A stretch of 53,366 nucleotides of DNA from a virus (IMGVR_UViG_3300025621_001498:1-53366); one strand, 5' to 3'. Numbered from the stretch's first letter, positions 1,303 to 53,366 are shown. The notes: a model not told the origin generated them from the sequence alone. Program-made: numbers and translations.

Positions 1303-1760
1303 GCAGCCAGGCGCAGTGCCCAGCTTTCGGTCAGCCACCGACACTGCGCTCCAGTCGTTTGCGGGTTGTAGATCGAAGGGTTCGGCAACGCCAAGGCGCG
1401 CATGCACCACTCTGAACAGAAGGCAGCATGCTGGGTCGGCCGGTTGCGGTTGAAAACCTGGCTGGCGATCAGTGATGGCCAGCCGTAAACGTCGCTGTCA
1501 GTGGCCTCGAAGTAGCGCACGATGGCGGTGCCGTCTGCCCACGGCAGCTCGATCAGATCCCAGTGATCTTCCCCCAGGCTGATTTCATCAGCGCCAGGCC
1601 CTACCCGCTTACGGCGCACGCCTTTGTCCATCACAGAGCTGGAGTAGCACCAGCCATCCACCACCAGCTCACAGTGGCTGTATTGGCTGCCCGTCCACCA
1701 GCGTATAGCGGCATTGCCGCGCTGGCCTTTGCCTTTGTACAGCGCGAGTTGTGCTGGCAT
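1299..1760 (-). CDS. Permuted papain-like (NlpC/P60, YiiX-like) peptidase/amidase
   Basis: YSHCE His motif precedes FCSEW Cys motif. Confidence 0.65.
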   Translation of the reverse strand: MPAQLALYKGKGQRGNAAIRWWTGSQYSHCELVVDGWCYSSSVMDKGVRRKRVGPGADEISLGEDHWDLIELPWADGTAIVRYFEATDSDVYGWPSLIASQVFNRNRPTQHAAFCSEWCMRALALPNPSIYNPQTTGAQCRWLTESWALRLAA

Positions 1761-11816: not shown

Positions 11817-12058
11817 TAACCCAGCCCCTTCATGAGCTTCTGGAAGTCTTTCTTGGATGCTCGAGCGGCGCGAACGGCTAGCGCGGCATCTCGCAGCGCA
11901 TCCTTCTTGCCGACTGCCACAGCCTCAATAAACCCCTCGATCTGCGGCAGGGTATAACTCTGAATATCAGCCCAGGCGTGGCCCGCGGATATCAGTTGTT
12001 GCGTAATGCCTGCCCAGCTAGAACTTCCGCCAGTCCTATCAGGGCTTGGTCGAAAAAA
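11816..12058 (-). CDS. Tail assembly chaperone frameshift extension (gpT equivalent)
   Basis: -1 frame is open from slippery T TTT TTC (12058-12052) to a TAA overlapping the tape measure ATG; no own start. Confidence 0.8.
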   Translation of the reverse strand, partial: FFRPSPDRTGGSSSWAGITQQLISAGHAWADIQSYTLPQIEGFIEAVAVGKKDALRDAALAVRAARASKKDFQKLMKGLG

Positions 12059-12354
12059 CTGGCGTTCACCCGCACCACATGCACCATCAACTCAACAGCT
12101 ACAGCTGCCGGCAAACGCCAGATCTGCCACGCGGTGAGGGTGGTTGCGCGGCCGAGGATCGCTCGCAGGTTTTTGTTTTTGGATGCATACAGCAGCACCG
12201 CGCCAGGGGCCGGGCTGGCCAGCGCCGCCATCAGCTCCGCTGAGGCTTTGCCAAATACCTCGAAGTGACGCAGCTGCACCGGCTTTATTCCTACCGACCG
12301 GCCATTCACATCAGCCAAAACAGTCGCCGGGAAAAGGATTTGAAGCTCTGACAT
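11992..12354 (-). CDS. Tail assembly chaperone (gpG equivalent)
   Basis: Upstream of tape measure; slippery heptamer near 3' end. Confidence 0.8.
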   Translation of the reverse strand: MSELQILFPATVLADVNGRSVGIKPVQLRHFEVFGKASAELMAALASPAPGAVLLYASKNKNLRAILGRATTLTAWQIWRLPAAVAVELMVHVVRVNASFFDQALIGLAEVLAGQALRNN

Positions 12355-12371
12355 GCCATTCTCCAGGTAAT

Positions 12372-12395
12372 AAAAAACCCGCCGAAGCGGGTTTT
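12372..12395. terminator. Bidirectional intrinsic terminator after moron
   Basis: AAAAAACCCGC-CGAA-GCGGGTTTT. Confidence 0.85.
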
Positions 12396-12403
12396 AATTA
12401 ATT

Positions 12404-13186
12404 TCAATATTCTTGCAATCTTCCGTCTGCATAGAGAACCTTCTTCAGTTCGAAACTGAGCTTAATATTACCCTCTTCTGCAAATCTAAAACTGTTATGC
12501 CGATCAATAAACTTGTTGTATTTTATTCCTCCAATCCAAGAAAGTATTTTACCGGACTTCACAGGATCATTCACAGCAACATTGGAGTCGATAATTTCGT
12601 TTCCTAAAAGGTCTGTAAAATGAAGGACTCCGTCAAAGGCTCTAATATCTTCTTGGCTGTCATTTTTGAAATCTAAAACAATATCAATTGTACCCTGACC
12701 ATACTCACCTTCAGTAAAGTCCTTTCTGATGAATGCTGCGCTCACTACGCCAGGAGCCAGCGCCTTCTGCAAAGGCTTTACGGGGTCAGCCTCACGCGAG
12801 CCTGAGAATGCGCCAGCCAACCCTTTAAATGAATTCTGTATAGCGCTTTTAATTTCGTACTTTACGTGTTCTCGGCCTGAAAAATAACCTACAACTAAAC
12901 CTAATACTAAAGCACCCACAATCTTCATATGTGGATTACTGTTAATCCAATCAGAGAAAGTTATCTTTGACGCCACTCCAGCGCTTGTAATTTCCGGATC
13001 TGCCTTCCGCTTTGAATTGTCTGAAACCGTTGGCTTTCCAGATTTATCAATTGAAATTTCTGAAGCGCTTTCCAGTCTTCGCTTGTTCGCCAGCGCCTTC
13101 TCATAATAAACGCCGCAAGCCGGACACTTAGCCGGATCACCGAATTCAGACGCTGCTGCCTCATGATCACAAACCGGACACTGCAT
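12404..13186 (-). CDS. Moron: zinc-ribbon plus single-TM membrane protein
   Basis: AT-rich; CPVC...CPAC, TM helix IVGALVLGLVVGYF; GGAGG SD; flanked by hairpins. Confidence 0.75.
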   Translation of the reverse strand: MQCPVCDHEAAASEFGDPAKCPACGVYYEKALANKRRLESASEISIDKSGKPTVSDNSKRKADPEITSAGVASKITFSDWINSNPHMKIVGALVLGLVVGYFSGREHVKYEIKSAIQNSFKGLAGAFSGSREADPVKPLQKALAPGVVSAAFIRKDFTEGEYGQGTIDIVLDFKNDSQEDIRAFDGVLHFTDLLGNEIIDSNVAVNDPVKSGKILSWIGGIKYNKFIDRHNSFRFAEEGNIKLSFELKKVLYADGRLQEY

Positions 13187-13288
13187 AGAGGAATCCCTCC
13201 CAATTGATATGGGAAGGACTGTAGCCCAGCCGAGGTAGAGGTTGCCAGCCAACGATATAGAACCTGCAACAGATGCCCAGAAACGACG

Positions 13289-13308
13289 AGGCCCGCAAAA
13301 GCGGGCCT
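13289..13308 (-). terminator. Hairpin after major tail gene
   Basis: AGGCCCGC-AAAA-GCGGGCCT. Confidence 0.6.
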
Positions 13309-13326
13309 TGTTCGTCTGGGCAGGCT

Positions 13327-14103
13327 TTAGACGGCGGACTTGTCCTCCACTTCCCACTGCCACATTGCAGCCTCACCGATATCGGTGATATTGGGATCTG
13401 CCAGCAGCCGGATCTGTACGGGGATGGTGCCGAACTCTGCACCCTGATTCAGCGGGATACCGCCGTTGAGCGCAATGCGGCAGTAGAAGCACTGGATGCG
13501 ACGGCGCTCGTTGTTGCCACCTTCGTTGATCTGGCTGAGCAGCACACGGTAGTACTTCTGGCCAACGGTGAAGGGCTTGATCAGGTCGATGGTCGGATAG
13601 CTGTAGCTGACCTTGATCGGCAGCATCAGCTCGCTCTCGGCCGCAATGTCCTCAGCCAGGCGCCCGCCGATCAGGATGCGGATGCCACCTGGAGTGACAG
13701 AGAAATCGATGTTGCGCTGGTACGGCTCGGACACCCCGTCTGCCGTAACCGCGGTTACCTCGAGCGGGATGTGCGCCAGCATGATGGTGCGGTCGATGTA
13801 AGCAGGATGCTCTTCTTCGACCACGCTGCCAGATGGCACCTTGGTGACGGAGCCATACATGGCGATCGCCGCGGCGGCTGGGTTGAATGCCACGGCCTCG
13901 CCGTTCAGCACGATCTCGCTGGTGGAGGTGAGGCTGTCCAGTGGCGGCAAGCCGATGCGGGTCGGATCGGGAATAGTGATCTCTTCCGTGGTCGGCTCGG
14001 CCGTTACGTTCTGCAGCTTGAACACTTCTTCGAAGTTCCAGCCCGGCCACAGGGCAACGCCCACGGGGCCACGAAAGAGTTGAGTGTGGAGCATCTGGCT
14101 CAT
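13327..14103 (-). CDS. Major tail (tube) protein
   Basis: 258 aa between tail completion genes and chaperone; GGAG SD. Confidence 0.75.
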   Translation of the reverse strand: MSQMLHTQLFRGPVGVALWPGWNFEEVFKLQNVTAEPTTEEITIPDPTRIGLPPLDSLTSTSEIVLNGEAVAFNPAAAAIAMYGSVTKVPSGSVVEEEHPAYIDRTIMLAHIPLEVTAVTADGVSEPYQRNIDFSVTPGGIRILIGGRLAEDIAAESELMLPIKVSYSYPTIDLIKPFTVGQKYYRVLLSQINEGGNNERRRIQCFYCRIALNGGIPLNQGAEFGTIPVQIRLLADPNITDIGEAAMWQWEVEDKSAV

Positions 14104-34454: not shown

Positions 34455-34535
34455 TCTACTAGAGTTATGACCATGATAACGCAAGTTATGGAAACGTCAA
34501 ACGCATGTTATTTGCGCGCTGATAACACACGTTTT
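34455..34535. promoter_or_regulatory. OR operators and pR promoter
   Basis: ATAAC-N4-GTTAT at 34476, variants at 34455, 34498, 34522; minus strand TTGACG(34500)-16-TATCAT. Confidence 0.8.
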
Positions 34536-34547
34536 AGCCTTGGAGGC

Positions 34548-35327
34548 ATGATTACTTCCCTAAACACTTTTGGTGAGCGACTGCTTTTTGCCCGCGAAAA
34601 GCGTGGCCTTAGCCAAGATCAGCTCGGCGAAAAAGCCGGCGTCTCTCAAGTCACCATCAATCACATCGAGAAAGGCCGGAACGCCAGCAGCAAGAAGCTG
34701 GTGGATATCGCGCGTGCTCTGAAAGTCCCCGCTGAATGGCTTGCCAGTGGCGAAGGTCAACACGCAGTCCTGAGGGATTTCCTACAGGAAGACCTCAATG
34801 GCCCGGGCCCCTCGGCTGAAAGCAACGCCGAGCTAATAGGCATGATGTCTGGCTGGGATGGCCGCACCCCTCTCGAAGCAGACGAAGTTGCAATCCCTCT
34901 CTATAAGGAAGTGGAAATGGCGGCAGGCTTCGGTGCCACTGAAGTGATTGAGGTTCCCGGCCGGTTACTGCGCTTCGCCAAGTCGACCTTGCGTGAGGCT
35001 GGCGTGCTCGAGCAGAACGCCGCCTGTGCAACGATCAAGGGCCGCAGCATGGAGCGCCTGATCATGGATGGCGCCACCATCGGCATCGACCTGGGCACAA
35101 AGCACATCGATGACGGCGAGATATACGCCTTCGACCAAGACGGCATGCTGCGCGTTAAATACCTGTACCGCCTGCCCGGCGGCGGCGTGCGCATCCGCAG
35201 CGAGAACGACGAAGAATTCCCCGATGAAACCCTGACCGCTGAGCAGTTCGCGAACATCCGCATGCTCGGCTGGGTTTTCTGGTGGTCAACTGTCCGCCGC
35301 CGGCGCGGGCTCAGCATCGCAAAATAG
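34548..35327 (+). CDS. cI: CI repressor (HTH plus S24 peptidase)
   Basis: XRE HTH, AG cleavage site, GRSME serine, VKYL lysine; GGAGG SD. Confidence 0.95.
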   Translation: MITSLNTFGERLLFAREKRGLSQDQLGEKAGVSQVTINHIEKGRNASSKKLVDIARALKVPAEWLASGEGQHAVLRDFLQEDLNGPGPSAESNAELIGMMSGWDGRTPLEADEVAIPLYKEVEMAAGFGATEVIEVPGRLLRFAKSTLREAGVLEQNAACATIKGRSMERLIMDGATIGIDLGTKHIDDGEIYAFDQDGMLRVKYLYRLPGGGVRIRSENDEEFPDETLTAEQFANIRMLGWVFWWSTVRRRRGLSIAK

Positions 35328-42648: not shown

Positions 42649-43116
42649 ATGAAACACTGTAAAAAGTGCGGCGCTCAGAAAGCGGAAACCGATTACTACG
42701 CCAGAGACAACACCTGCAAAGAGTGTCGTAAGGCTGCGGTTCGCTCTAACTATGCGAACAATCGGGAGCATTACCGCGAGTATGAGCGCGGCCGTGCCAG
42801 TCTGCCCCACCGGGTAAAGGCCAGAGAGAAGTATCAGAACACTCCAGCCGGCAAAGAGCGCGGCAACGCTGCCAGGCGCTCATACATTCAGCGCAATCCT
42901 GAAAAGCGCATTGCCCACAACCTCACACAGAGCGCACTCAAGCGAAACAAGGTTTGGCGCGCGCCCTGCTGCATGGCTCCAGGCTGCTTCAGCACTGAGC
43001 GTCTGCATGGTCACCACTGCGACTACGACAAGCCGCTTTCGGTGGTCTGGCTTTGCGCCAAGTGCCATGCCGAGTTGCACCGAGAATTCACGATGAAGCA
43101 ACGGGCGGCTGCCTGA
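42649..43116 (+). CDS. Zinc-finger/HNH-like protein
   Basis: CKKC, CKEC, HHCDY...WLCAKCH. Confidence 0.7.
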   Translation: MKHCKKCGAQKAETDYYARDNTCKECRKAAVRSNYANNREHYREYERGRASLPHRVKAREKYQNTPAGKERGNAARRSYIQRNPEKRIAHNLTQSALKRNKVWRAPCCMAPGCFSTERLHGHHCDYDKPLSVVWLCAKCHAELHREFTMKQRAAA

Positions 43117-43138
43117 TGCCATTCACTGAGAGCCCACC

Positions 43139-43414
43139 ATGATCACAGAAGCCATCCGCACCGAGCCGTGGCACTTCGGCCCCGAGCGCCGCATCGTCCT
43201 ACCCCGCCGCCGCGAGCAGCTGCAGCGGGCGCGACAACTGACTGACTTCATCACCGCCAACCGCTTCGGCCGGGTCAAAGGCTTTACCCGCCTGCGCACG
43301 CCGAACGAATTGGCCAAGCTTGGCCGCGAACAGGGCCACGACTTCAAACCCCTGGAAATCGAGTACGCCGCCGCCCGCGCAATGCTGGCCATAGGCGAAC
43401 CCGTCAAGTACTGA
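43139..43414 (+). CDS. Hypothetical protein
   Basis: 91-aa ORF with phage-like codon use. Confidence 0.6.
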   Translation: MITEAIRTEPWHFGPERRIVLPRRREQLQRARQLTDFITANRFGRVKGFTRLRTPNELAKLGREQGHDFKPLEIEYAAARAMLAIGEPVKY

Positions 43415-43475
43415 CCCACACCCAATTGAACACCACAGGCGCTTCGGCGCTTTTCTTTTGCCCGAGGTATTTGTC

Positions 43476-44153
43476 ATGAGCACAGACCTTGCACCTATCG
43501 CCGAACCAGCACTCCCCGCCGACATCTGGGCGCGCTCTGCTACTGAGCTGAACGACTACCACTTCAACGTGAAAGGCCGCATCAGCCAGGCTGAGCTTGA
43601 TCAGCTGGAGGCTGAGTTTCTGGCCAAGGGCGGTGAGATTCAGGCCATCCCTACCGGCGTGAGCGGCGAAGACAGCAGCCAGTTCAACAACCGCACGGTT
43701 GCCGTCAACCCGGTATCGCAGTTCAGCACCGCAGAGCAGAGACAGCACGCCAGGGAGCGCACCGAGAAGGTGTATGCGGCCGACGCTGAGCTGGTTGCAG
43801 CGATAGCCGTGAACCTGCCCGCAGTGCAGACGGCCCGCCAACTGTGCCAGCTCTGCAAGTGCCACGCAGACCGCCTCGATCGCATCCTGCGCACCTACTT
43901 CGCCGACGACGCCATGGCCAAGCCATTCATTCGCATCAGCCGGGAAGAGCGCGAGGCCAAGATCATTCGCGAATACCCGCAGCTGATAAACCAGATGAGT
44001 CAGTCCGACTGCGCCAAGGCCCTGCATGTGCACCATTGCGAGCTGAAACGCATCGTCGCCCTGCACCGGCTCAAGCCAGCACCCACCGCAGCGCAGGTCT
44101 GGAATAACCCAAACCGCCCGGCTACGCGACAGGCGGCTGAGGCTGCGGCCTAA
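43476..44153 (+). CDS. Hypothetical protein, possible DNA binder
   Basis: EFLAKGGEIQAIP motif and two HTH-like segments. Confidence 0.65.
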   Translation: MSTDLAPIAEPALPADIWARSATELNDYHFNVKGRISQAELDQLEAEFLAKGGEIQAIPTGVSGEDSSQFNNRTVAVNPVSQFSTAEQRQHARERTEKVYAADAELVAAIAVNLPAVQTARQLCQLCKCHADRLDRILRTYFADDAMAKPFIRISREEREAKIIREYPQLINQMSQSDCAKALHVHHCELKRIVALHRLKPAPTAAQVWNNPNRPATRQAAEAAA

Positions 44154-44246
44154 CCGGAAAAACATTTCCCCTTTCCGGTAAAACTTTTCCACCCACCCAA
44201 GCCCAGCGCCAGCAGCGCAACGGGCTGCTATTGCCTGGAGAAAGCT

Positions 44247-44628
44247 ATGCAGAACGTACTTTATGCCGGCCTGCGTAACCCTGAGCGCGACCAGAACATC
44301 TTCAACGCCCTGGCGGGCAAGTCGATCAGCGAAGTGGCGGAGCTTATGGAGCTGCAGCCGAGCACGGTGCGAGCGGCGCAGAAGCGTATCGCAGCCCTTG
44401 CCACCTTTAACCTCACCCTCACAGGGGGGGGGTAAGGACATCTCGATTGGGCCGGTCGCTGCCAAGTCATTCCGGCGTGCCGCTCTCGGTGCATACCGCC
44501 ACTTTTGCGGCACCTTCCGCAGCCTAGAGCTGAATCAGTGGGCCGTAACGGACGGCACCACAACCATCAGCATCCAAGACCTTCGAGATCTCGACTCGGG
44601 TGTTGCCTCGGTAACCGAGGACGATTAG
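44247..44628 (+). pseudogene. HTH gene interrupted by G9 tract
   Basis: ORF 44247-44435 stops right after G9 (44424-44432); G8 would continue in frame to 44628. Confidence 0.65.
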
Positions 44629-44683
44629 GAGTTGTGCAGTAGGAGCCATCCTGAACACAAGGCGCGGCCGGAGGATGTGAAAT

Positions 44684-44995
44684 ATGCCAACTAATCCGCA
44701 GCAGGATGAATACATGCACGCCTGGGTAAATCATAACTTCCACGCATACATGGCAATGGCAGGCCTTGAGCTTCCGCCAATTGGTGGTCGGCGTGAAGGC
44801 ATCGCATCCAGCGCCGCCATCAATGGCTACAGCGTGATCGTAGAAAACCACGGTACCTACGCCATGTGCTACGGCTCGGCTCCAGCAGGTAGTAGAGGCG
44901 GGTTTTGCTGGCGACAAGCGTTCGCAATACAGCCAGGTCGGCCAGAGTCAACAGGTAAAGGCCGAGCAGCTGCCACTGCTTTGAGGCAACTATGA
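44684..44995 (+). CDS. Hypothetical protein
   Basis: GGAGG SD; ATGA coupling to next gene. Confidence 0.5.
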   Translation: MPTNPQQDEYMHAWVNHNFHAYMAMAGLELPPIGGRREGIASSAAINGYSVIVENHGTYAMCYGSAPAGSRGGFCWRQAFAIQPGRPESTGKGRAAATALRQL

Positions 44996-45738
44996 CCAGT
45001 TTATCAACCGCCGATAAGGCGCTCGACAGCGGCCGGAGGGCGCGGCCGACTAAACGCTCTTGGACCAAGGCCGAAGAGAAGCTGCTCGCCGAACTCTACC
45101 CGGATACCCCGCTGCACCGGCTGCTGGTCATCTTCAACCGCAGCGAGAGCGCTATCTATGGCAAAGCATTCGGTCTCGGCCTGAAGCGTAGCGAGGCATT
45201 CATGAGCGGACCCTTCGCGGGGCGCATAAAGCCCGGGGCAGATATAGGTCGCGGGGCGCGTTTCGAGAAAGGCCACACTGCCTGGAACAAAGGCATTAAA
45301 GGCTTCAATCCAGGCGGTCGGGCCGCAGATACCCAGTTCAAGCCGGGCCAAGTCAACGGCAAGGCCGCGCTGCTGCTACAGCCGCTGGGTACCGAGCGCA
45401 TCACCAAGGATGGCATCCGACAACGCAAGATTCGTGAAGACGGCCCCGCCAAGCAGCGCTGGCGGGCCTGTCACGCAATCCTCTGGGAAGAGCATCACGG
45501 GCCGATACCTGCTGGCCACATCGTAGTGTTCTGTGATCGCGACACGACCCGCATCGAGATCGAAAACCTAGAGCTTATTACCCGCGCCGAGAACATGCGG
45601 CGCAACACGATCCACCGCTACCCGCCAGAGCTGAAAGAAGTCATCCAGCTAAAGAAAAAGATTGAGCGGAAAATCAGGAGCCTTATCGATGAAAAACAAG
45701 ATGACAGACGTGCGCAACCACCTGTTTGCCGTACTTGA
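44992..45738 (+). CDS. HNH endonuclease-signature protein
   Basis: FEKGHTAWNKG, WEEHHGPIP, NLELITRAENM. Confidence 0.8.
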   Translation: MTSLSTADKALDSGRRARPTKRSWTKAEEKLLAELYPDTPLHRLLVIFNRSESAIYGKAFGLGLKRSEAFMSGPFAGRIKPGADIGRGARFEKGHTAWNKGIKGFNPGGRAADTQFKPGQVNGKAALLLQPLGTERITKDGIRQRKIREDGPAKQRWRACHAILWEEHHGPIPAGHIVVFCDRDTTRIEIENLELITRAENMRRNTIHRYPPELKEVIQLKKKIERKIRSLIDEKQDDRRAQPPVCRT

Positions 45739-45919
45739 AGGCCTACAGGACAAAGACAACCCCATGGAGATCGAGCGCGCAAAAGCCGTCTGCCAGGTAG
45801 CGGGGGTGCTGGTGGAGTCAGCGAAGGTAGAAGTGGCCTTCATCAATGCTGTCGGCATGGGCGCCAAAACCACAGGTTTCATTGAGTCGGAACCACCCCT
45901 GCCAGCTCCCCGGGGCTAA
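45689..45919 (+). CDS. Conserved hypothetical phage protein
   Basis: DVRNHLFAVLE, EIERAKAV, SAKVEV. Confidence 0.7.
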   Translation: MKNKMTDVRNHLFAVLEGLQDKDNPMEIERAKAVCQVAGVLVESAKVEVAFINAVGMGAKTTGFIESEPPLPAPRG

Positions 45920-46095
45920 TAGTTTGGTTGCTGTACTGATCGCCCAATGCAAGCAGCAGACGAACAGCTCGACATATTCAACGCCCAGTAATAACCACCC
46001 TACCCGCCCACTCCCTGCCTGATGCTCGGGCGGGAGGGTGGTGAACATAGACCCTACGCACTTCCAATAATTCACGCCACTGGCGAGGACTCCCC

Positions 46096-46713
46096 ATGAG
46101 CACGAAACGCGACATGATCAAGATCGAAACCCCGGAAGGCTTCAAGCTGTCCGTGCCGGCCCATGTTGTGGCCACCACCTTTATCTCGGCGGCGCTGGCC
46201 CAGGTTGGCGTTGTGCAGCAGGTTTCTGCGCCAGCTCAGCCGCTGAGCGCCCAGGCCATCCCGGCAGTCGGTGAATACTGGCCAGGTCAGGGCGGTATCA
46301 ATGGCGGCGGGGTTGCGGCGCACGGCGATGTGCCGGCCCATTACCTGATCTGGGCGACAGATGATGTCGGCGAGCACGAATGGGGCGGGCGCGGCAAAGA
46401 GTCGGGCGCCATCTGCAAGCGTGACGGCCAGGCCAATACCAAGGCGTTGCTGGCCGAGGGCGATCATCCAGCGGCAATAGCTGCAGTGATCAGTGCCGAT
46501 GGTCACTACGACTTCTACCTGCCGGCTGCAGCAGAGCTTTACCACGGCTGGCTGAACGTGCCGGACATCTTCAAGAAGGATCGCTGGTACTGGTCGAGTT
46601 CGCAGCGCTCCGCCTACCTCGCTTTCTACGTGAACTTCGATGATGGCTATCAGGGCATCTACGCCAAGTACAACGAGTGTCTCGTCCGCCCCGTCCGCAG
46701 AGCATTCATTTGA
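46096..46713 (+). CDS. DGR target 1, C-type-lectin-like (DUF1566-like)
   Basis: FYLPAAAEL, WYWSSS, C-terminal VR ending VRPVRR. Confidence 0.9.
   Translation: MSTKRDMIKIETPEGFKLSVPAHVVATTFISAALAQVGVVQQVSAPAQPLSAQAIPAVGEYWPGQGGINGGGVAAHGDVPAHYLIWATDDVGEHEWGGRGKESGAICKRDGQANTKALLAEGDHPAAIAAVISADGHYDFYLPAAAELYHGWLNVPDIFKKDRWYWSSSQRSAYLAFYVNFDDGYQGIYAKYNECLVRPVRRAFI
46600..46701 (+). repeat. Variable repeat VR1
   Basis: 101/102 identical to TR; one mismatch, 46660 T versus TR adenine 48062. Confidence 0.95.
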
Positions 46714-46730
46714 TCATTTGCTAATTCATT

Positions 46731-46746
46731 CTGGCCGACAGGCCAG
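46731..46746. other. Hairpin downstream of VR1 (retrohoming target signal)
   Basis: CTGGCC-GACA-GGCCAG. Confidence 0.7.
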
Positions 46747-46757
46747 CCGTAACTCAG

Positions 46758-46777
46758 GGCGCAGCAGCGCCTTTTTT
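46758..46777 (+). terminator. Terminator between the two target genes
   Basis: GGCGC-AGCA-GCGCC-TTTTTT. Confidence 0.55.
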
Positions 46778-46803
46778 GTTGCCTTAAAAAAGAGGATGCA
46801 CCC

Positions 46804-47421
46804 ATGCAAGCAGCACAACAGCAGGCCCCTGCGGTAACCATTCCCGAAATCGGCGCACCCTACGGTGGCGGCTTCTTCTCGGGCATCACTGTGCAGGATG
46901 GCAAGCACTACCTGAACATCACCGCCGGCCGTGAGCATGAGCTGGAAGGTGAATGGGGCAATTACGGCGTGAAGATCGAAGGGGCGGACAGCTTCACCGA
47001 CAGCCGCGCCAATACCGAGGCCATGGCCGCAGCCGGTAGCGTACTGGCGCAGCAGGTGCTGGCACTGGATATCGGCGGCTTCACTGACTGGGCGATCCCG
47101 GCCCGCGACGTGCAGGAGCTGCAGTACCGCCACTTCAAGCCAACCGGCCAGCAGAACTACTGCTGGAACCGTGACGGCGACAACCCCAACAGCCTGCCGG
47201 TAGGCAACCTGTACACCGAAGAGTCGCCGGCACAGACCGCGCTGGAGGCCTTCAAGCATGGCGGCGCTGATGCCTTCCAGGGGCGCTGGTACTGGAGCAG
47301 CTCGCAGCGCTCCGCCTACGACGCTTTCTACGTGAACTTCGATGATGGCTATCAGGGCATCACCGCCAAGTACATCGAGTGTCTCGTCCGCCCCGTCCGC
47401 AGCGAGTTGCTCATTGATTAA
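46804..47421 (+). CDS. DGR target 2, C-type-lectin-like (DUF1566-like)
   Basis: DWAIPARD, WYWSSS, C-terminal VR; paralogue of target 1. Confidence 0.9.
   Translation: MQAAQQQAPAVTIPEIGAPYGGGFFSGITVQDGKHYLNITAGREHELEGEWGNYGVKIEGADSFTDSRANTEAMAAAGSVLAQQVLALDIGGFTDWAIPARDVQELQYRHFKPTGQQNYCWNRDGDNPNSLPVGNLYTEESPAQTALEAFKHGGADAFQGRWYWSSSQRSAYDAFYVNFDDGYQGITAKYIECLVRPVRSELLID
47302..47402 (+). repeat. Variable repeat VR2
   Basis: 97/101 identical to TR; mismatches 47363 and 47375 at TR adenines, 47320-21 at TR CT. Confidence 0.95.
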
Positions 47422-47435
47422 TTCGTTCATTTAAT

Positions 47436-47453
47436 CCGGCCGCTTGCGGCCGG
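47436..47453. other. Hairpin downstream of VR2
   Basis: CCGGCCG-CTTG-CGGCCGG. Confidence 0.7.
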
Positions 47454-47473
47454 TGCTTTATGGAAGCCAGCCG

Positions 47474-47830
47474 ATGGCAATGCATACGGATCTGCCGATA
47501 CACAAACTCGCCTTTGATCTGCTCAGTCTTGCCACCGATATCACGCGGAACATTCCGCGCGACTTGAAGGCCGGGCTTGGCGCGAAGGTTCGCGATGAAT
47601 GCATAGAGGTCATGGTGCTGATTGCCAGGGCCAATGCCGCGCGAGACAAGCAGCCGCACCTGGGCTCACTGGTTGAGCGCATCCAGGTGGTTGAGTTCCT
47701 GCTCAGGCTGTTCAAGGAAAAGCGCTTTATCAGCGTTCCGCAGCATGCGGCGGCCATTGAGTTGACCGCCTCCATCGGCAAACAGGCCAATGCCTGGAAA
47801 CGCTACACCGCAACCGCGCCCGCTACTTGA
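47474..47830 (+). CDS. avd: Accessory variability determinant (four-helix bundle)
   Basis: LPIHK.A.DL, IPRDLK..LG, IGKQANAWK; located between targets and TR. Confidence 0.88.
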   Translation: MAMHTDLPIHKLAFDLLSLATDITRNIPRDLKAGLGAKVRDECIEVMVLIARANAARDKQPHLGSLVERIQVVEFLLRLFKEKRFISVPQHAAAIELTASIGKQANAWKRYTATAPAT

Positions 47831-48001
47831 TCGTCACGGCGATCAGGTCTGTGCGATTTGAATCTGGTCGTGCCGCTGGCCAATTGGCCACCGCCATGCG
47901 CATACGAGATACCGCCGGTCTAAAGCGGCCGCGTAGGTCTCGCGCAGTTACCGGGCTGATCGGCTTTGCCTTCGGCTCGGCGACGTAGATAGCACGACAG
48001 G

Positions 48002-48103
48002 TCGCAGCGCTCCGCCTACCTCGCTTTCTACGTGAACTTCGATGATGGCTATCAGGGCATCAACGCCAAGTACAACGAGTGTCTCGTCCGCCCCGTCCGC
48101 AGA
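48002..48103 (+). repeat. Template repeat TR
   Basis: Repeat copy between avd and RT; holds A at three VR-variable positions. Confidence 0.92.
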
Positions 48104-49202
48104 TTCGACTGTTGCACCCTACCCGTTCCGCGACCTGGTCCAGGCCTACTACGACTGCCGGCGCTCCAAGCGCAACAGCGCCAGCGCGCTGGCATTCGAG
48201 GCAGACCTAGAGCGGAACCTCACCAAGCTGCACAGCGACCTGACTGCCGGCACCTACCGGCCAGGCCGCTCCATCTGCTTCGTGGTTACCAGGCCCAAGG
48301 CCAGGGAGGTATGGGCGGCGGACTTCCGAGACCGCATCGTCCACCACCTGCTGTACAACCATGTGGCACCGCGCTTCTACGCCAGCTTCATAGCGGACAG
48401 TTGCGCCTGCATACCCGGGCGCGGCACGTTGTACGCCGCTGAGCGCCTGGAATCGAAGATCCGCAGCATCAGCCAGAACTGGGCGAAGCCGGTCTTCTAC
48501 CTCAAGTGCGACCTAGCCAACTTCTTTGTCGCCATCGACAAGCAGGTGCTGCGCCAGCAGTTGGCAGCGCGCATCACTGAGCCCTGGTGGCAAGCACTGG
48601 CCGAACAGATACTGATGCACGACCCGCGCACCGACTACGAGGTGCGCAGCCCCAACCACCTGTTCAACCGGGTGCCGCAGCACAAGCGCCTGACTGCTCA
48701 GCCTGCGCGGCTGGGTTTGCCGATCGGCAACCTGTCTTCGCAGTTCTTCGCCAACGTGCACCTGGATTCCCTGGACCAGTTCGTAAAACACCGCCTGCGC
48801 TGCAAGCACTACGTGCGCTACGTCGACGACTTCGTGCTGCTGCATGAGTCGCCGCAACAGCTGAACGCCTGGCTGGCCCAGATAGAGGCGTTCCTGCCCT
48901 CGCTGGGCGCGAGGCTCAACCCGACCAAGACCATCCTGCAGCCAGTTGCCCGCGGCGTGGACTTCGTTGGTCACGTCATCAAGCCCTGGCGGCGTACCAC
49001 CCGGAAGCGCTCAGTGGCCCAGGCCATCAAGCGCACCGCCGCAGCACCAGCAGAAGACCTGCGCGAAACCGCCAACAGCTACTTCGGCCTGCTCAGCCAG
49101 GCCAGCCACAGCCAGAAAGACCGCGCCGCCCTGGCGCGCCTGATCCTAAAGCGCGGCCATGCAGTGAATGGTGCGCTGACTAAAACCTATCCGAAGAGGT
49201 GA
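48042..49202 (+). CDS. DGR reverse transcriptase
   Basis: FRDRIVHH, LKCDLANFF, GLPIGNLSSQ, YVRYVDDF, GVDFVG; no maturase or endonuclease tail. Confidence 0.95.
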   Translation: MMAIRASTPSTTSVSSAPSADSTVAPYPFRDLVQAYYDCRRSKRNSASALAFEADLERNLTKLHSDLTAGTYRPGRSICFVVTRPKAREVWAADFRDRIVHHLLYNHVAPRFYASFIADSCACIPGRGTLYAAERLESKIRSISQNWAKPVFYLKCDLANFFVAIDKQVLRQQLAARITEPWWQALAEQILMHDPRTDYEVRSPNHLFNRVPQHKRLTAQPARLGLPIGNLSSQFFANVHLDSLDQFVKHRLRCKHYVRYVDDFVLLHESPQQLNAWLAQIEAFLPSLGARLNPTKTILQPVARGVDFVGHVIKPWRRTTRKRSVAQAIKRTAAAPAEDLRETANSYFGLLSQASHSQKDRAALARLILKRGHAVNGALTKTYPKR

Positions 49203-49205
49203 ATC

Positions 49206-49646
49206 ATGCCCGCCGAAAACAAACTATCGCAAAAGCGCCAGCGCGCTGAGCACGTAAACCAGGCCATCAAGATTATTGCCGACCACGGCCGGCGCTTCTT
49301 CTACAGCCAGGCCAGTGGCCGCTATGCCTCAGTCGAAGTCGACGCGCGTGGCAAGGTCTGGTGGATCGATGACTACAGTGGCAAGCGCATCTACACCCAC
49401 CCGACAACCTGGGGCTCCAGGTGGCGGGGCTTCACCCACGGCGGCACGTTGCGCGATCTAGTCGAGGCCTTTCGCGACTACATCTGCACCGGCGAGCAGC
49501 TGAGTCCCTTCTACCTCGGCCCTGAGCGACACCGCATCACAGACGGGAATATTTGGGGCTACGCGACAGATGCCATGACTGCAGTTCGCGAGCAGGCCGG
49601 AGCCTTACCAGTGTTCCGCCAGCCGCAGCAGCAGGCCGCGGCATGA
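49206..49646 (+). CDS. Conserved hypothetical phage protein
   Basis: GRRFF, WRGFTHGGTL, NIWGY; GAGGT SD. Confidence 0.75.
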   Translation: MPAENKLSQKRQRAEHVNQAIKIIADHGRRFFYSQASGRYASVEVDARGKVWWIDDYSGKRIYTHPTTWGSRWRGFTHGGTLRDLVEAFRDYICTGEQLSPFYLGPERHRITDGNIWGYATDAMTAVREQAGALPVFRQPQQQAAA

Positions 49647-49732
49647 CCCCAACCACCTTCTGCCGCACCTGGCGCAAGCCGGCCGAAGAATGCCGCTGCT
49701 TGCGGTGCACGCCCATCACGCCGGAGTAACCC

Positions 49733-49906
49733 ATGAAGCACCTGATAAACGTCCTGATCGTGATCGGGCTGACGCTGATGTGCATCCGTGTCGGCACCGA
49801 CCTGACTGGCCTGAGCGACCAGACATACAGCTTCACGACCGATGACCTGCTCTGTGTCGTAAACATCGAGCGCGGCCTGGCTTCCATGTCCTGCCTCAAG
49901 GAGTAA
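49733..49906 (+). CDS. Small membrane/secreted protein
   Basis: Own translation MKHLINVLIVIGLTLMC..., 57 aa; GGAG SD. Confidence 0.55.
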   Translation: MKHLINVLIVIGLTLMCIRVGTDLTGLSDQTYSFTTDDLLCVVNIERGLASMSCLKE

Positions 49907-49909
49907 CCC

Positions 49910-50233
49910 ATGCGCCGCATCTACCTTGCCGGGCCAATGACCGGCATTCCCGAGTTCAACTACCCAGCCTTCAACGCAGAAGCAGCCAGGCTGCGGGCGC
50001 TGGGTTACCACGTCGAGAACCCAGCCGAGAACCCGGCGCCAGAGTGCGGCACCTGGGAGGCATATCTGCGAATCGCCCTGCGCCAGATGCTCACCTGCGA
50101 AGTCGTTGCCCTGCTGCCTGGCTGGATTGATAGCCGCGGCGCCACGCTTGAGCGCTACACGGCGCAGCAGGTTGGCATCGCCATCATCAACGCATCAGCC
50201 ATTCAGGAGGCATTGCAATGTCAGGCTGCATGA
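49910..50233 (+). CDS. DUF4406 nucleoside deoxyribosyltransferase-like protein
   Basis: RIYLAGPMTG, NPAE, LPGW..SRGATLE. Confidence 0.85.
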   Translation: MRRIYLAGPMTGIPEFNYPAFNAEAARLRALGYHVENPAENPAPECGTWEAYLRIALRQMLTCEVVALLPGWIDSRGATLERYTAQQVGIAIINASAIQEALQCQAA

Positions 50234-50421
50234 CCGACAGCGCCCAAGTGCAGCGCATCAACCGACAGCTTGAACGCTGGCTGCACAAACCCAGCGGCCG
50301 GCGAGGCTGCGTGATCTTCGAAGTAGCCGGAACCTGCGAATTGCAGGGCATAGACGGCCGCAGCTTCTACGCCAAGCGGGAAGACCTCAACAACACCGAA
50401 ACCTGGGAGCGACTGCCATGA
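50218..50421 (+). CDS. Hypothetical protein
   Basis: Coupled ORF, GGAGG SD. Confidence 0.55.
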   Translation: MSGCMTDSAQVQRINRQLERWLHKPSGRRGCVIFEVAGTCELQGIDGRSFYAKREDLNNTETWERLP

Positions 50422-50627
50422 ACTTGAAGAAGCAGATCGAGTTGCCAATGAGCTGCGGGGTTGATGGCCGGACATGGCACCTCTTCACGTTCGACTTCAC
50501 AACCCCGGACGGCACGTTCAGCAGCTACCTGTACGCGATTTCAAGCGAGCACGCGGCTGCGCTTATCGCCGACATGAAAGAAACCGCCCAGCTGAGCGGG
50601 CAAATGGTGGGAGTTGTGCAGCCATGA
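50418..50627 (+). CDS. Hypothetical protein
   Basis: ATGA-coupled ORF. Confidence 0.6.
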   Translation: MNLKKQIELPMSCGVDGRTWHLFTFDFTTPDGTFSSYLYAISSEHAAALIADMKETAQLSGQMVGVVQP

Positions 50628-50902
50628 GCCTGTTTCAGTGCTACGAATGCGGTTGCCGGGAGAACACAGCGACCTGCAATTTTTGGTCGCGTGTTGAGGG
50701 TGACTGGCGAGGCGTAGAGCCTCAGCCTTGGGCTCTCTGCTCTGCGTGCGACCCGGATATTGGAAGCTGGCACGACAAGTTCCCGAGGCTGTTCCTGCCG
50801 AAAGGAATGTTCATCACCAATCAGCGCGGCAACCTTGCTCACAAGGAAACGGGCGACGAGAACACCGCCGCTTATGCAATCAACCAGCAGCGGAGTACAT
50901 AA
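50624..50902 (+). CDS. Zinc-finger hypothetical protein
   Basis: CYECGC, CSAC. Confidence 0.65.
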   Translation: MSLFQCYECGCRENTATCNFWSRVEGDWRGVEPQPWALCSACDPDIGSWHDKFPRLFLPKGMFITNQRGNLAHKETGDENTAAYAINQQRST

Positions 50903-50904
50903 CG

Positions 50905-51606
50905 ATGGCCGAAGAACTGAAAGCGTGCGCCGAATGCGGAGCGCCGGAAGGATACGTGAGCGGCGAGCGGTTCATGGCTGAGCATGAGCGGGTGCGCGAG
51001 CTGCGAGCTGAAATAGCAGCGCTGCGCGCCAAGGCCAGCCAAGTGGGCGAGGCTGTTGCGGAGTATCAGCAGCTATCGCGATACGGGAACTGGGACAGGA
51101 TAGACAAGGTTGACTTTGACCTTGGCATACTGGGCAGCTGCCCGGAGAAATTCAGGGCGCTCTACACCCACCCAGCCGACCAAGTGGCAGAGCCGGTACT
51201 TGAGCGTCCAGCCAAGGTAGGCGCCGGTACTTTCTCCGCTGGCCTACCGCAGCGAATGGTGGTCGAGGCGGCGTACCGCCAATACGAGTACGCGCAAGAC
51301 CCGCCGTTCAGTGACGAGAATATCAAGTCGCTAGTCCAGGCTTTCACGCAAGGAAATCCACAGGTCGTTGCGCCAGACAATTTTCGTGAGCCCGCGCAAA
51401 TGGTCGACCCTGAACTGGTCGAGTTGCTGCGCGGCCTGGTCGAGATTGTCGGGCGCAAGAACCGTGGCCGCTCCGGCTCGCCGAATCACGGCCACTCAAT
51501 CCCGGGCATATGGGATAGCGACAACGGCGACCTGGCTGGCAAGCCCTGCGCAGAGTGCGCCCTGTACGACCTGGCTGTCGCAAGAATCGCAGCACTCCAA
51601 CCCTAA
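50905..51606 (+). CDS. Mosaic hypothetical phage protein
   Basis: EELKACAECG, ALYTHP; GGAG SD. Confidence 0.6.
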   Translation: MAEELKACAECGAPEGYVSGERFMAEHERVRELRAEIAALRAKASQVGEAVAEYQQLSRYGNWDRIDKVDFDLGILGSCPEKFRALYTHPADQVAEPVLERPAKVGAGTFSAGLPQRMVVEAAYRQYEYAQDPPFSDENIKSLVQAFTQGNPQVVAPDNFREPAQMVDPELVELLRGLVEIVGRKNRGRSGSPNHGHSIPGIWDSDNGDLAGKPCAECALYDLAVARIAALQP

Positions 51607-51660
51607 CCCCGATCAAACCCCAATCAACTGTGCCGGCCATGCCGGTGGAGAGGTATTGCC

Positions 51661-52020
51661 ATGCCTGATTTTCAAGCTGTCAGCACACGCACGGCCAAAA
51701 AGCAGCATGTGTGCTGCGAATGCCGTGGCCATATCCAGCCTGGCCAGGAATATCAGCTCACATCAGGAAGCTGGGAAGGCTCCATGGATTCGTTCAAGAC
51801 CTGCCTTGGCTGTGCGGATGCTCGCGATTGGGCAACTGCTCAGCCTGAGTGGGCCGGCGACGGCGAATGTCTCTTCTACTTCGGCATGCTGGAAGAAGAC
51901 CTGGCCAACCTGGCACCGGAAATCATCACCACCGATGGCCGGCGCTTCCACACATACCGCCTGCAGGCGCAGATGGCTAACCGTCGCAACGCCCACACCA
52001 GCCAGAGCAAAGCAGCCTAA
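51661..52020 (+). CDS. Zinc-finger hypothetical protein
   Basis: HVCCEC..IQPGQEY..KTCLGC. Confidence 0.7.
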   Translation: MPDFQAVSTRTAKKQHVCCECRGHIQPGQEYQLTSGSWEGSMDSFKTCLGCADARDWATAQPEWAGDGECLFYFGMLEEDLANLAPEIITTDGRRFHTYRLQAQMANRRNAHTSQSKAA

Positions 52021-52061
52021 CCCCTTCCCACCCTCCCCGGCATAGGGGTAGAGAGGTATCC

Positions 52062-52316
52062 ATGAGCGCAGCAGAGCAAATCGGTCACCAGACCGAAACC
52101 CTGGAAGACGACGAGCTGGTTGCGATCACCGGCTATCGTCTACCCTCCAAACAAATCGCCTGGCTCAAGCTGAAAGGCTGGGAGTTCGTCACCAGCGGGG
52201 CCAATCGCCCTGTTGTTGGCCGGGTATACGCCCGCCTCAAGCTGGCCGGCGTGAAACCATCAACCACAAACGCAGTGGCCGAGCCCTGGTCGCTGGACTT
52301 GTCTCGCGTGGGGTAA
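52062..52316 (+). CDS. Excisionase-like protein (DUF4224)
   Basis: ELVAITGY...QIAWL; directly before integrase. Confidence 0.8.
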   Translation: MSAAEQIGHQTETLEDDELVAITGYRLPSKQIAWLKLKGWEFVTSGANRPVVGRVYARLKLAGVKPSTTNAVAEPWSLDLSRVG

Positions 52317-52319
52317 AGC

Positions 52320-53366
52320 ATGCGCCCGAAGAAACCCGCTAACCGCGACCTGCCGCCACGGATGATCCGGCGGGTGCGCAAGCTGAAGTCAGGCGAGGAA
52401 TGGATCGGCTACTACTACGCCGGGCGGGATGATGCAGGGAAGCGAAAGGAGATACCGCTGGGGACTGACGCCGATGAGGCGCGGGTGAAGTGGGCGCAGC
52501 TGGAGCGCAAGCAGGTGCCGCTGGCAGCCAAGACAGTTGGCGATCTGCTGCGGCGTTATGACAGGGACGTGATCCCAGGTAAGGGCGTGAAGACGCAGAA
52601 CGATAACCGCAAGTGCCTGACGCAGCTGTACAAGGCGTTCGACAGTGCGCCGATGGATGCCATCACCCCGCAGATTATCGCCCAGTACCGCGATGCCAGG
52701 ACGGCACCAGTGCGGGCAAACCGGGAGATTGCCCTGCTCTCCCATGCGTTCAACATGGCCAGGGAATGGGGCATCTACAACAAAGAGAACCCCACGCGGG
52801 GCGTCAGGCGCAACAAGGAAGAGCCGCGCGACGTGTATGTCACCGACGAGGTTTGGCAGGCGCTATACCTCGAGGCACCGAAAGACCTGCGCCTGGCCAT
52901 GGATATTGCCTATCTCACCGGGCAGCGGCCGGCGGACGTGCGCAAGATGCGCTGGGCTGACGTAGGCGATGATTTCTTAATGGTGGGCCAGGGCAAGACC
53001 TCGACCAAGCTGCGCATCCGGCTGCACATCGATGGGCTACGCACAGGCCTTGGTCGCCTGCTCGATCAACTCGACCGCAACCGACCGCACCTGATCACCA
53101 ACGAGAACGGCGCCCAATTGACGGAGAACATGCTGCGGCTTCGGTTTGAGCCGGCGAGGAAACGGGCTGCTGCCAAGGCGATGGCCAACAAAGACCCCGA
53201 CCTGGCAGCGGCCATCATGCAGTTCCAGTTCCGCGACATTCGCCCCAAGGCGGCATCGGAAATTGTGAGCCTGGAAGATGCCTCTGACCTACTTGGCCAC
53301 ACCACTCAGGGCATGACCCAGCGCGTATACCGCCGTGTTGGGAAGGTGGTAAACCCGGTCAAATAG
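52320..53366 (+). CDS. int: Tyrosine integrase
   Basis: TGQRPADV, QGKT, FRDIRPK, LLGH, RVY catalytic residues. Confidence 0.95.
   Translation: MRPKKPANRDLPPRMIRRVRKLKSGEEWIGYYYAGRDDAGKRKEIPLGTDADEARVKWAQLERKQVPLAAKTVGDLLRRYDRDVIPGKGVKTQNDNRKCLTQLYKAFDSAPMDAITPQIIAQYRDARTAPVRANREIALLSHAFNMAREWGIYNKENPTRGVRRNKEEPRDVYVTDEVWQALYLEAPKDLRLAMDIAYLTGQRPADVRKMRWADVGDDFLMVGQGKTSTKLRIRLHIDGLRTGLGRLLDQLDRNRPHLITNENGAQLTENMLRLRFEPARKRAAAKAMANKDPDLAAAIMQFQFRDIRPKAASEIVSLEDASDLLGHTTQGMTQRVYRRVGKVVNPVK

Follow-up and report, generated by a model that had tools for sequence, protein, structure and literature searches.

A two-target diversity-generating retroelement with an eroded template in the repressor-to-integrase arm of a lambdoid provirus

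Organization of the cassette

The complete IMG/VR provirus entry IMGVR_UViG_3300025621_001498 (53,366 bp; "the window" hereafter means this whole stretch) has a lambdoid layout and carries, on the plus strand at 46096-49202, a diversity-generating retroelement (DGR) with two target genes, an avd gene, a template repeat (TR) and a reverse transcriptase (RT) gene (Table 1). The tail fibre, tape measure, major tail, capsid, protease, portal and terminase genes are on the minus strand within 1-33334, as are replication genes (RuvC-like, DnaB-like and O-like). The plus strand encodes, in order, a cI-like repressor, Sak4-like, exonuclease and SSB proteins, an HNH endonuclease, the DGR and an integrase. 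The cassette lies between the repressor and integrase genes, on the strand opposite to that of the tail genes, and its targets come 11 kb after cI, past the recombination genes. An earlier note, made from this sequence alone, had described the gene order target 1-target 2-avd-TR-RT and its separation from the tail genes, and the open reading frames (ORFs), Pfam matches, repeats and gene map bear out both. It also used the label pL operon, which synteny suggests for this arm.

A repeat search identified exactly three direct copies (46577-46700, 47279-47402 and 47979-48102), and the complete record (53,366 bp) has no further copy. About 22 nt at the start of the third copy are part of the match to the RT-15 structured RNA, which abuts the 5′-end of the TR, a feature also annotated in Pseudomonas phage Cruim01. 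VR1, the variable repeat of target 1, ends 13 nt short of the stop codon, and VR2, that of target 2, ends 19 nt short; ORF calls, BLASTP and the repeat count agree with the earlier description of two 205-aa paralogs that share a single TR. Over the 101-nt core, VR1 differs from the TR solely by A>T at 48062, and VR2 by A>C at 48063, A>T at 48075 and CT>GA at 48020-21. The three adenine differences, which are everything outside the CT>GA codon, fall at positions 1-2 of AAC codons.

The Avd ORF exceeds the Pfam cut-off and scores just 49.9 bits with the NCBIfam DivGenRetAVD model (cut-off 80); its probable start is the ATG at 47474, giving a protein of 118 aa like the Cruim01 homolog. The RT ORF is uninterrupted and has the YVDD and IGNLSSQFFAN motifs typical of DGR RTs. 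Its lone in-frame ATG is inside the TR (conserved GATGATGG) and homology to relatives begins at about 48102, so the first ~20 residues of the RT are template-encoded and are altered by the TR erosion documented below. Translation of a TR as an N-terminal extension of the RT has been reported for Pseudoalteromonas phages, where it was called unusual (PMC10612066). The hairpin downstream of VR1 is likely a DGR target-recognition hairpin, the hairpin downstream of VR2 also scores as terminator-like, and no GC hairpin with a 4-nt loop is present downstream of the window TR. A terminator after VR1 was considered as a family feature and dropped; the strict pattern is present in 10 of 140 loci, and the window's own site is unscored by it.

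Table 1. Features of the DGR cassette and of other genes in the window
Feature	Position	Strand	Evidence or remark
Target 1 (T1 type), 205 aa	46096-46713	+	ORF; last ~33 residues encoded by VR1
VR1, at 3′-end of target 1	46600-46700	+	1 difference from TR
Target 2 (T2 type), 205 aa	46804-47421	+	ORF; C-terminus encoded by VR2
VR2, at 3′-end of target 2	47302-47402	+	4 differences from TR
Avd ORF	47444-47830	+	Pfam bAvd, E 3.6e-13, 50.4 bits, cut-off 40
RT-15 structured RNA	47814-48004	+	Rfam RF03018, full length, 182.9 bits, gathering score 82, E 8.8e-46
TR	48002-48102	+	101-nt shared core; 19 adenines, 3 AAC codons
RT ORF, 386 aa	48042-49202	+	RVT_1, E 1.1e-16
GC-rich hairpin CTGGCC-GACA-GGCCAG, 4-nt loop, 30 nt past VR1	46731-46746	+	DNA fold z-score -2.7
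GC-rich hairpin CCGGCCG-CTTG-CGGCCGG, 4-nt loop, 33 nt past VR2	47436-47453	+	DNA fold z-score -2.9
Terminator-like stem-loop with T-run, between targets 1 and 2	46756-46773	+	Motif scan and DNA fold
Promoter-like site upstream of target 1	46042-46071	+	Weak consensus match, 9/12; sole match in 43000-53366
cI-like repressor	34467-35327	+	Gene map
Integrase	52320-53366	+	Gene map; runs off the window end
231-aa early protein, short match to SutA RNA-polymerase-binding domain	43458-44153	+	PF20661, E 4e-7, 29.7 bits, cut-off 29.3
Small ORF flanking the cassette	45662-45919	+	phrog_2044 (labelled RNA polymerase beta subunit), E 1e-14
Small ORF flanking the cassette	49910-50233	+	Nucleoside 2-deoxyribosyltransferase-like PHROGs, E 2.5e-33
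319-aa ORF between tape-measure and major-tail genes	12404-13363	-	No PHROG or NCBIfam match
Enoyl-CoA hydratase/carnithine racemase-like ORF, beyond tail-fibre genes	1299-1760	-	phrog_1128, moron/auxiliary metabolic gene category, E 2.1e-36

Adenine-specific diversification in related cassettes

Relatives of the RT were confirmed in 244 of 312 candidate stretches from species-representative bacterial and archaeal genomes and in 495 of 498 from IMG/VR viral contigs. Eighty loci from each collection, 160 relatives in all, were analysed, giving 161 loci with the window. Homologs of target 1, target 2 and Avd are present in 136, 142 and 158 of the 160 relatives' loci, respectively, in flanks that are mosaic. 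Two matches to the TR that qualify as VRs were found in 108 of the 161 loci, three in 38, four in 1, one in 8 and none in 6. Mismatches were counted in 333 gapless, same-strand VRs of the relatives (7 were set aside for gaps or strand), and 4449 of the 4679 (95.1%) are at TR adenines, with 176 at G, 32 at C and 22 at T; adenine makes up 30% of the TR. The median VR has 14 mismatches, 13 of them at adenines. GC hairpins with a 4-nt loop are present downstream of 135 of 332 VRs and of 1 of 153 TRs in the relatives, the commonest loop being CTTG (75 of the 135).

Pairwise comparison of 137 cassettes gave 14 gapless pairs that are at least 97% identical. Ten are fully identical and probably represent the same phage present twice. 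Locus L100 differs from L102 and from L103 at two sites each, outside the VRs, and L126 and L130 have two VR differences, both non-adenine. The remaining pair, L159 and L161 from IMG/VR, has 3148-nt cassettes (-2050 to +1098 relative to the RT start) with 32 differing sites, all within the two VRs (18 and 14) and 31 at TR adenines; there are no differences in the remaining ~2,940 nt. Because the differences are confined to both VRs and all but one are at adenines, adenine-specific retrohoming into both targets is live in this family. The L159 and L161 loci make up a natural before/after pair for this DGR family.

Taken alone, the window carries a weak signature. Only three of its five TR/VR differences are at adenines, which counts against a DGR and would fit a different origin of the repeats, two being the conserved C-terminal ends of paralogous proteins and the third a chance or pseudogene copy that precedes an unrelated RT. 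The family resolves the question, since 95% of its mismatches are at TR adenines and the L159/L161 pair has changed nowhere but in the VRs. Avd, the RT-15 RNA and VR-specific hairpins are also all present, and the alternative of coincidental repeats is refuted, with a residual probability that is negligible. The element is a genuine DGR, of a family common in Pseudomonas prophages. The earlier note had named a lack of adenine-specific variation across relatives as ground for giving up its interpretation; variation of precisely this kind pervades the relatives.

The target proteins

Targets 1 and 2 are paralogs of two types, aligned by hhalign with a probability of 99.8% (T1 45-205 to T2 7-204) and 38% identical by BLASTP. 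In target 1, a conserved N-terminal module (about 45 aa) and a Pro/Ala linker precede a DUF1566/Lcl_C lectin-like domain. Target 2 is a stand-alone DUF1566/Lcl_C lectin-like domain with a ~40-aa insertion and without an N-terminal extension; the earlier characterization of both as little more than a lectin-like domain holds for target 2 and not for target 1. Among the 138 loci whose proximal targets could be classified, 14 have just one target, and in the others the order is T1-T2 in 83, T2-T1 in 24, T2-T2 in 9 and T1-T1 in 8. As a rule each type is thus represented once, and the two types may work together.

Both targets match the C-terminal third of phrog_4245 (target 1, E 1.1e-27; target 2, E 3e-31), a profile of 583 positions of which 400-583 are the lectin part. 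Precomputed annotation gives PF07603.18 for target 2 of the window and for most homologs, two Duganella homologs score 38 bits against PF07603, and the targets are probably divergent PF07603 members or close kin. At E <= 0.001, 804 of 1066 candidates are homologs of target 2. All but one of the 120 listed have a length of 202-207 aa, the exception having 265 aa; most are named DUF1566, and just 2 longer, fused relatives were found among 978 candidates. The NCBIfam scan gave no match for either target. PADLOC gave none for the targets, Avd or five neighbouring proteins, and just generic matches for the RT. For the N-terminal module of target 1, an AbrB/MazE-like fold was considered and dropped: a profile built from 39 N-termini matched nothing relevant in Pfam or in the PDB, where a TetR protein ranked first (E 0.65), and structural neighbours of target 1 residues 2-40 in the ESM Atlas were all below the bar.

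Location across relatives and independence from virion genes

The single-strand layout cI-DGR-integrase is also present in the cultured Pseudomonas phages Cruim01 and phPA-G, which infect P. syringae and P. aeruginosa, respectively, and both of which carry the two-target cassette. A Duganella prophage with an RT 71% identical to that of the window has the same layout, with the targets directly after cI, and the position between cI and integrase is thus kept across Gamma- and Betaproteobacteria. A cI-like gene was recognised in 39 of the 160 relatives' loci, upstream in 38 and on the same strand in 38; an integrase gene was recognised in 63, downstream in all 63 and on the same strand in 56. 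Homologs of the window's 10 structural proteins were found within ±8 kb in none of the 160 loci, the probes being the window's own proteins only, so that other structural genes could escape.

In 22 near-complete proviruses that carry the cassette, the tail-fibre protein of the window is present in 2 and its capsid protein in 1, and no conserved docking partner on the virion is therefore evident. The cassette appears to be a mobile module that travels with unrelated capsid and tail modules. Each of the 22 records contains 1-5 full-length TR-like copies, every one of them in the roughly 10 kb that precede the TR and in its orientation, and none has a VR outside the early arm; the absence of VRs from tail genes, claimed for the window, extends to these proviruses. 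The features by which a tail-fibre or receptor-binding protein is recognised, namely coding within or co-inheritance with a tail module and an N-terminal attachment domain, are not seen in the targets.

Homologs of the targets are also encoded by phages that have no DGR. In the phage collection as a whole, target homologs occur in 29 of 50,697 records, all of them Pseudomonas phages, with stand-alone forms in siphoviruses, in jumbo myoviruses and in phages named vB_PaeP. The stand-alone DUF1566 homologs (phrog_4245) are 31-68% identical to target 2. In D3, orf68 is the first gene after cI and on the same strand, and FBPa19 has a homolog fragment downstream of cI. Medea1 and Aurca01 keep the T1 and T2 pair after the recombination genes with just a broken RT remnant downstream, consisting of the C-terminal 90 residues with two in-frame stops (Medea1, L166, 48401-48673; Aurca01, L171, 32115-32387). 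In these two phages the DGR has been lost and the targets kept. The homologs in D3, PMG1, PA5oct, Medea1 and Aurca01 belong to the same protein family as the window targets and have a similar early or immunity-proximal position; they lack Avd, a TR and an intact RT, and their C-termini are consequently fixed. The PA5oct homolog, EST35_0104, shares 34% of its residues with target 2 along 192 aa (E 6e-24) and is encoded among the small ORFs of the terminal repeat. As described in the text of Lood et al. 2020 (PMC7318152) that covers this repeat, gp34-gp105 are mostly highly transcribed early, and structural proteins are just gp39, gp48 and gp51. EST35_0104 would then belong to an early, non-virion block, if locus tag 0104 corresponds to gp104.

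Because the cassette is in the immunity or early arm, is associated with unrelated virion modules and has stand-alone homologs in early regions, the targets most likely function off the virion. A number of observations weigh against such a role, or against the domain assignment behind it, beyond the limited reach of the structural probes already given. Both targets miss the PF07603 Lcl_C/DUF1566 gathering threshold of 34.9 bits (target 1, 26 bits, E 1.2e-5; target 2, 31.4 bits, E 2.5e-7), and the one solved structure reached by the target 2 profile in the PDB is Lcl-CTD 8Q4E, matched weakly over residues 133-200 (E 0.024), so that the lectin fold is predicted from sub-threshold Pfam, PHROG and weak PDB profile matches. 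One 1514-aa relative has fn3 and Big domains and, given this protein and the 583 positions of phrog_4245, the DUF1566 domain can serve in large, probably external proteins. Characterised DUF1566-type proteins (Legionella Lcl and LdtA) are surface proteins, according to the relevant text of PMC5758913 and PMC11162425. Neither target sequence shows a lipobox or, as had been claimed, a signal-like N-terminus; the accompanying claim that no transmembrane segment is present is less secure for target 1, where a charged N-terminus is followed by a stretch of borderline hydrophobicity (Kyte-Doolittle maximum over 19 residues, 1.67, from residue 22). The corresponding maximum for target 2 is 1.31. Lastly, in the lytic phage PMBT3 (L170, 2484-4621), a 495-aa protein encoded just after the lysis genes matches "virion structural" and, weakly, tail-fibre PHROGs, and the end of its gene is overlapped by that of a 217-aa homolog, the two being translationally coupled. 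This is the one context that points to structural use of the DUF1566 domain. The earlier designation of the targets as non-structural early proteins is thus favoured indirectly by their position, their uncoupling from virion genes and the PA5oct homolog, and opposed by PMBT3.

The targets could alternatively be virion components, for example tips or adaptors that dock on tail fibres, with the DGR switching host range as it does through Mtd in BPP-1 and the location of their genes away from the late operon being incidental. This would follow the BPP-1 paradigm and the statement in Roux et al. 2021 (PMC8144416) that viral DGR targets are mostly tail proteins, non-structural viral targets being mentioned there in passing. 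It would accommodate the PMBT3 homolog, the ~580-aa phrog_4245 forms, the 1514-aa relative and the absence of a signal peptide-like N-terminus, as in phage structural proteins, and the conserved N-terminal module of target 1 could dock. Target 2, however, has no such extension. A virion role also has to be reconciled with a cassette that stays in the cI-to-integrase arm, opposite in strand to the tail genes, across proteobacterial classes, in proviruses that share capsid (1 of 22) or tail-fibre (2 of 22) proteins so rarely, and with stand-alone homologs in siphoviruses, jumbo myoviruses and vB_PaeP-named phages, including the one in the early block of PA5oct. We regard it as unlikely.

A second alternative is that target expression takes place chiefly from the prophage in lysogens, as with rexAB beside lambda cI, the products acting as variable sensors or blockers of superinfecting phages; this would be exclusion encoded by the prophage and not counter-defence during the lytic cycle. 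D3 and the Duganella prophage both have target genes immediately behind the cI-like repressor gene, in the same orientation, and the first VR is less than 1.5 kb from the end of cI in 5 of the 37 loci with a recognisable cI. Promoter-like and terminator-like sites flank target 1 of the window, and a DGR-based immunity that includes cytosolic recognition proteins has been put forward as a hypothesis (PMC10053308). Yet in the window 11 kb and the recombination genes separate the targets from cI, and the promoter-like match, being no more frequent than in shuffled sequence (1 versus a mean of 2.5), is a lead and not evidence. The targets have no effector domain and no PADLOC match, and virulent jumbo phages carry an early-expressed homolog, which fits a role in the lytic cycle. 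Expression mainly in lysogens appears improbable to us, to about the same degree as a virion role.

An adenine-poor template in the window

The TRs of the relatives encode SQRSANNAFNMNFDDGNQNNNDKNNE..., with nine AAC codons as the mode (93 of 153). The window TR encodes SQRSAYLAFYVNFDDGYQGINAKYNE... and has just three AAC codons. It has 20 adenines in its last 100 nt, the lowest number in 154 TRs; the 153 relatives have 23-38, with a mode of 31, and the TR of locus L055 is more mildly eroded, with 23. The most informative comparison is with locus L086, whose RT is 96.7% identical to that of the window and whose RT-15 region is identical at 179 of 188 positions. Of the 101 TR positions, 13 differ between the two, each of them occupied by adenine in L086 (A-to-N). 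The template of the window therefore bears the DGR's own mutational signature. The TR was overwritten by already-mutagenised sequence, either a VR through gene conversion or a mutagenised cDNA. Both VRs were then homogenised to the new TR, and just three later A-to-N changes are now visible. With the loss of 12-13 adenines and of six of nine AAC codons, the number of amino-acid combinations theoretically open to the element drops from about 10^17 to no more than about 10^10.7.

The A-poor 5′-half of the TR is joined to its unique upstream flank in the independent Logan assembly of run X1 (record 4, 47376-48031, 0 differences). This run is probably the source sample, and it is available as assembled contigs, from which rare variants are dropped; no unique contig among them bridges 48031-48076. 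A second, related cassette variant is present in run X1 at lower depth (about 5-10 versus about 30-37), covering window positions 46158-47405 and 48791-49085 and having many differences in parts of the target genes outside the VRs.

From the per-site frequencies of the family, about 7.1 of the 19 remaining adenines are expected to be changed in each VR; the observed numbers are 1 in VR1 (P 3e-4) and 2 in VR2 (P 3e-3). None of the 333 VRs of the relatives has as few as four mismatches or fewer. The GAC codon of VR2, which is CTC in the window TR, is AAC in the relatives' TRs and is thus a product of older diversification kept on the 5′-side, as partial homing of the 3′-side would leave. The hypervariability attributed to the targets in the earlier note therefore fails for the window copy, in which an adenine-eroded TR is matched by VRs nearly identical to it. 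The note's interpretation as a whole is partly supported, and the TR erosion had escaped it.

These numbers raise the possibility that the DGR of this provirus no longer diversifies, the repeats being products of ordinary gene conversion that followed the overwriting of the TR, and the targets fixed and on the way to the state of Medea1 and Aurca01. The most adenine-poor TR of 154, the shortfall of A-site changes, the lack of any similarly unchanged VR in the relatives and the non-TR codon retained in VR2 would all fit, and targets do outlive the RT in those two phages. Against this, the RT, Avd, RT-15 RNA, both hairpins and the GC-rich ends are all intact, the three differences outside the VR2 codon are at AAC adenines, as residual mutagenic homing predicts, and the VR2 pattern is compatible with partial 3′-side homing. 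We consider cessation a substantial possibility and still on the doubtful side; the element looks intact, with a recent output far below the family norm. The window is a natural example of an adenine-mutagenised TR, and bears on how DGRs decay and on how the direction of TR-to-VR transfer is protected.

Proposed mechanism and role

The steps of transcription, copying and cDNA replacement proposed here are modelled on BPP-1, and the recipients and the rewritten stretch are those established by the family comparison. Transcription of the arm that extends from the cI-like repressor to the integrase would yield mRNA for target 1, target 2, Avd and the RT, together with an RNA containing RT-15 and the TR. 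The RT and Avd would copy the 101-nt TR RNA into cDNA, with misincorporation opposite adenines. This cDNA would then take the place of the matching 101 nt in each target gene, at its 3′-end; the shared GC-rich terminus (...CGTCCGCCCCGTCCGCAG) and the GC hairpin, with its 4-nt loop, some 30 nt further on would direct the exchange. Both targets are recipients in this family. The rewritten stretch encodes the last ~33 residues of the DUF1566/Lcl_C C-type-lectin-like domain, presumably its ligand-binding face, and the proteins most likely act as variable binders, off the virion and inside the infected or lysogenic cell, in conflicts between phage and host or between phages.

The best explanation of the data, and one that we consider probable, is that the element is a genuine DGR whose targets most likely function off the virion and whose template has been eroded in this copy. 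An off-virion role for the targets is plausible from their genomic context. A more specific proposal can be made only tentatively, and has the smaller chance of being correct: the two targets would be cooperating cytoplasmic binders with a lectin fold, directed against fast-evolving proteins of host defence or of rival phages, with the DGR maintaining a repertoire at the level of the population, and such binders would be expressed from the immunity or early arm of temperate phages of Pseudomonas and of some Betaproteobacteria.

In textbook phage DGRs, host range is changed by mutating tail fibres. In the large family described here, the diversified genes are in the repressor-to-integrase arm and move independently of virion modules. 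If the targets do act inside the cell, DGRs would join the toolkit of phage counter-defence or superinfection exclusion, and the known uses of accelerated protein evolution would be widened. If the proposal of cooperating binders is true, it would amount to an "adaptive" form of counter-defence or exclusion and be the first demonstrated case of a DGR operating intracellularly in phage conflicts and not on a surface. The eroded TR of the window, the partly eroded TR of L055 and the RT remnants of Medea1 and Aurca01 would, in that case, be snapshots of a system freezing on a useful specificity. The question is open to experiment, as the two-target cassette is also available in cultured phages, namely Cruim01 and phPA-G.

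Relation to known systems

The cassette is alike to the BPP-1 DGR (mtd-avd-TR-brt; described in part in the text of PMC5758913) in its target-avd-TR-RT order, in having the VR at the 3′-end of a C-type-lectin-fold target, in adenine-specific mutagenesis and in the GC-rich end with a downstream hairpin with a 4-nt loop. BPP-1 has one tail-fibre protein as target, whereas the family of the window has two, sometimes three, small paralogous targets, of DUF1566/Lcl_C type and not Mtd, and the window cassette is in the repressor-to-integrase arm instead of beside tail genes. An RT-15 RNA before the TR and an RT ORF that starts inside the TR are further differences from BPP-1.

The closest published class is category "d" (DUF1566/DUF823/Fib_succ_major, CLec2) of Wu et al. 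2018 (PMC5758913), in which the VR overlaps a DUF1566-type motif and, as the survey text states, about half of the targets are short proteins consisting of the DUF1566 domain alone. Its exemplar, Legionella LdtA, is a surface lipoprotein according to that text; the window targets differ in having neither lipobox nor signal-like N-terminus. The portion of the survey text on this category does not describe an early-arm prophage location or a pairing of T1 and T2, and the supplementary tables may list the family. Mechanistically this is an ordinary BPP-1-type DGR, with a target class, the short DUF1566 proteins, already tabulated in that survey. Legionella Lcl is related through the DUF1566-containing C-type-lectin-like domain of Lcl-CTD (PDB 8Q4E), which forms trimers (PMC11162425). 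Lcl differs from the phage targets in that it is secreted, is fused to a collagen-like stalk and binds host glycosaminoglycans, and the sequence match is weak.

Cytosolic recognition proteins diversified by DGRs have already been hypothesised. Belalov et al. 2023 (PMC10053308) propose VR-bearing recognition proteins, some cytosolic, in conflicts between viruses and hosts. Their study is a survey and hypothesis built on Pfam compositions and concerns host defence, whereas the window element is phage-borne, and the words "Pseudomonas" and "DUF1566" are absent from its text. A literature search for this family of Pseudomonas prophage DGRs, its early-arm location and the T1/T2 pairing found no report, with the proviso that the supplementary tables of surveys may list it, and a DGR goes unmentioned in the main texts of the publications on Cruim01 and phPA-G.

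Neighbouring genes

Other genes in the window include several with matches of interest (Table 1). In the same arm as the cassette, the 231-aa early protein with a short match to the SutA RNA-polymerase-binding domain may be a factor for takeover of host transcription, and the two small ORFs that flank the cassette have PHROG matches labelled RNA polymerase beta subunit and nucleoside 2-deoxyribosyltransferase-like. On the minus strand, an enoyl-CoA hydratase/carnithine racemase-like gene is located beyond the tail-fibre genes. The 319-aa ORF between the tape-measure and major-tail genes is within 12001-14000, the stretch with the lowest GC content in the record (0.526, relative to about 0.60).

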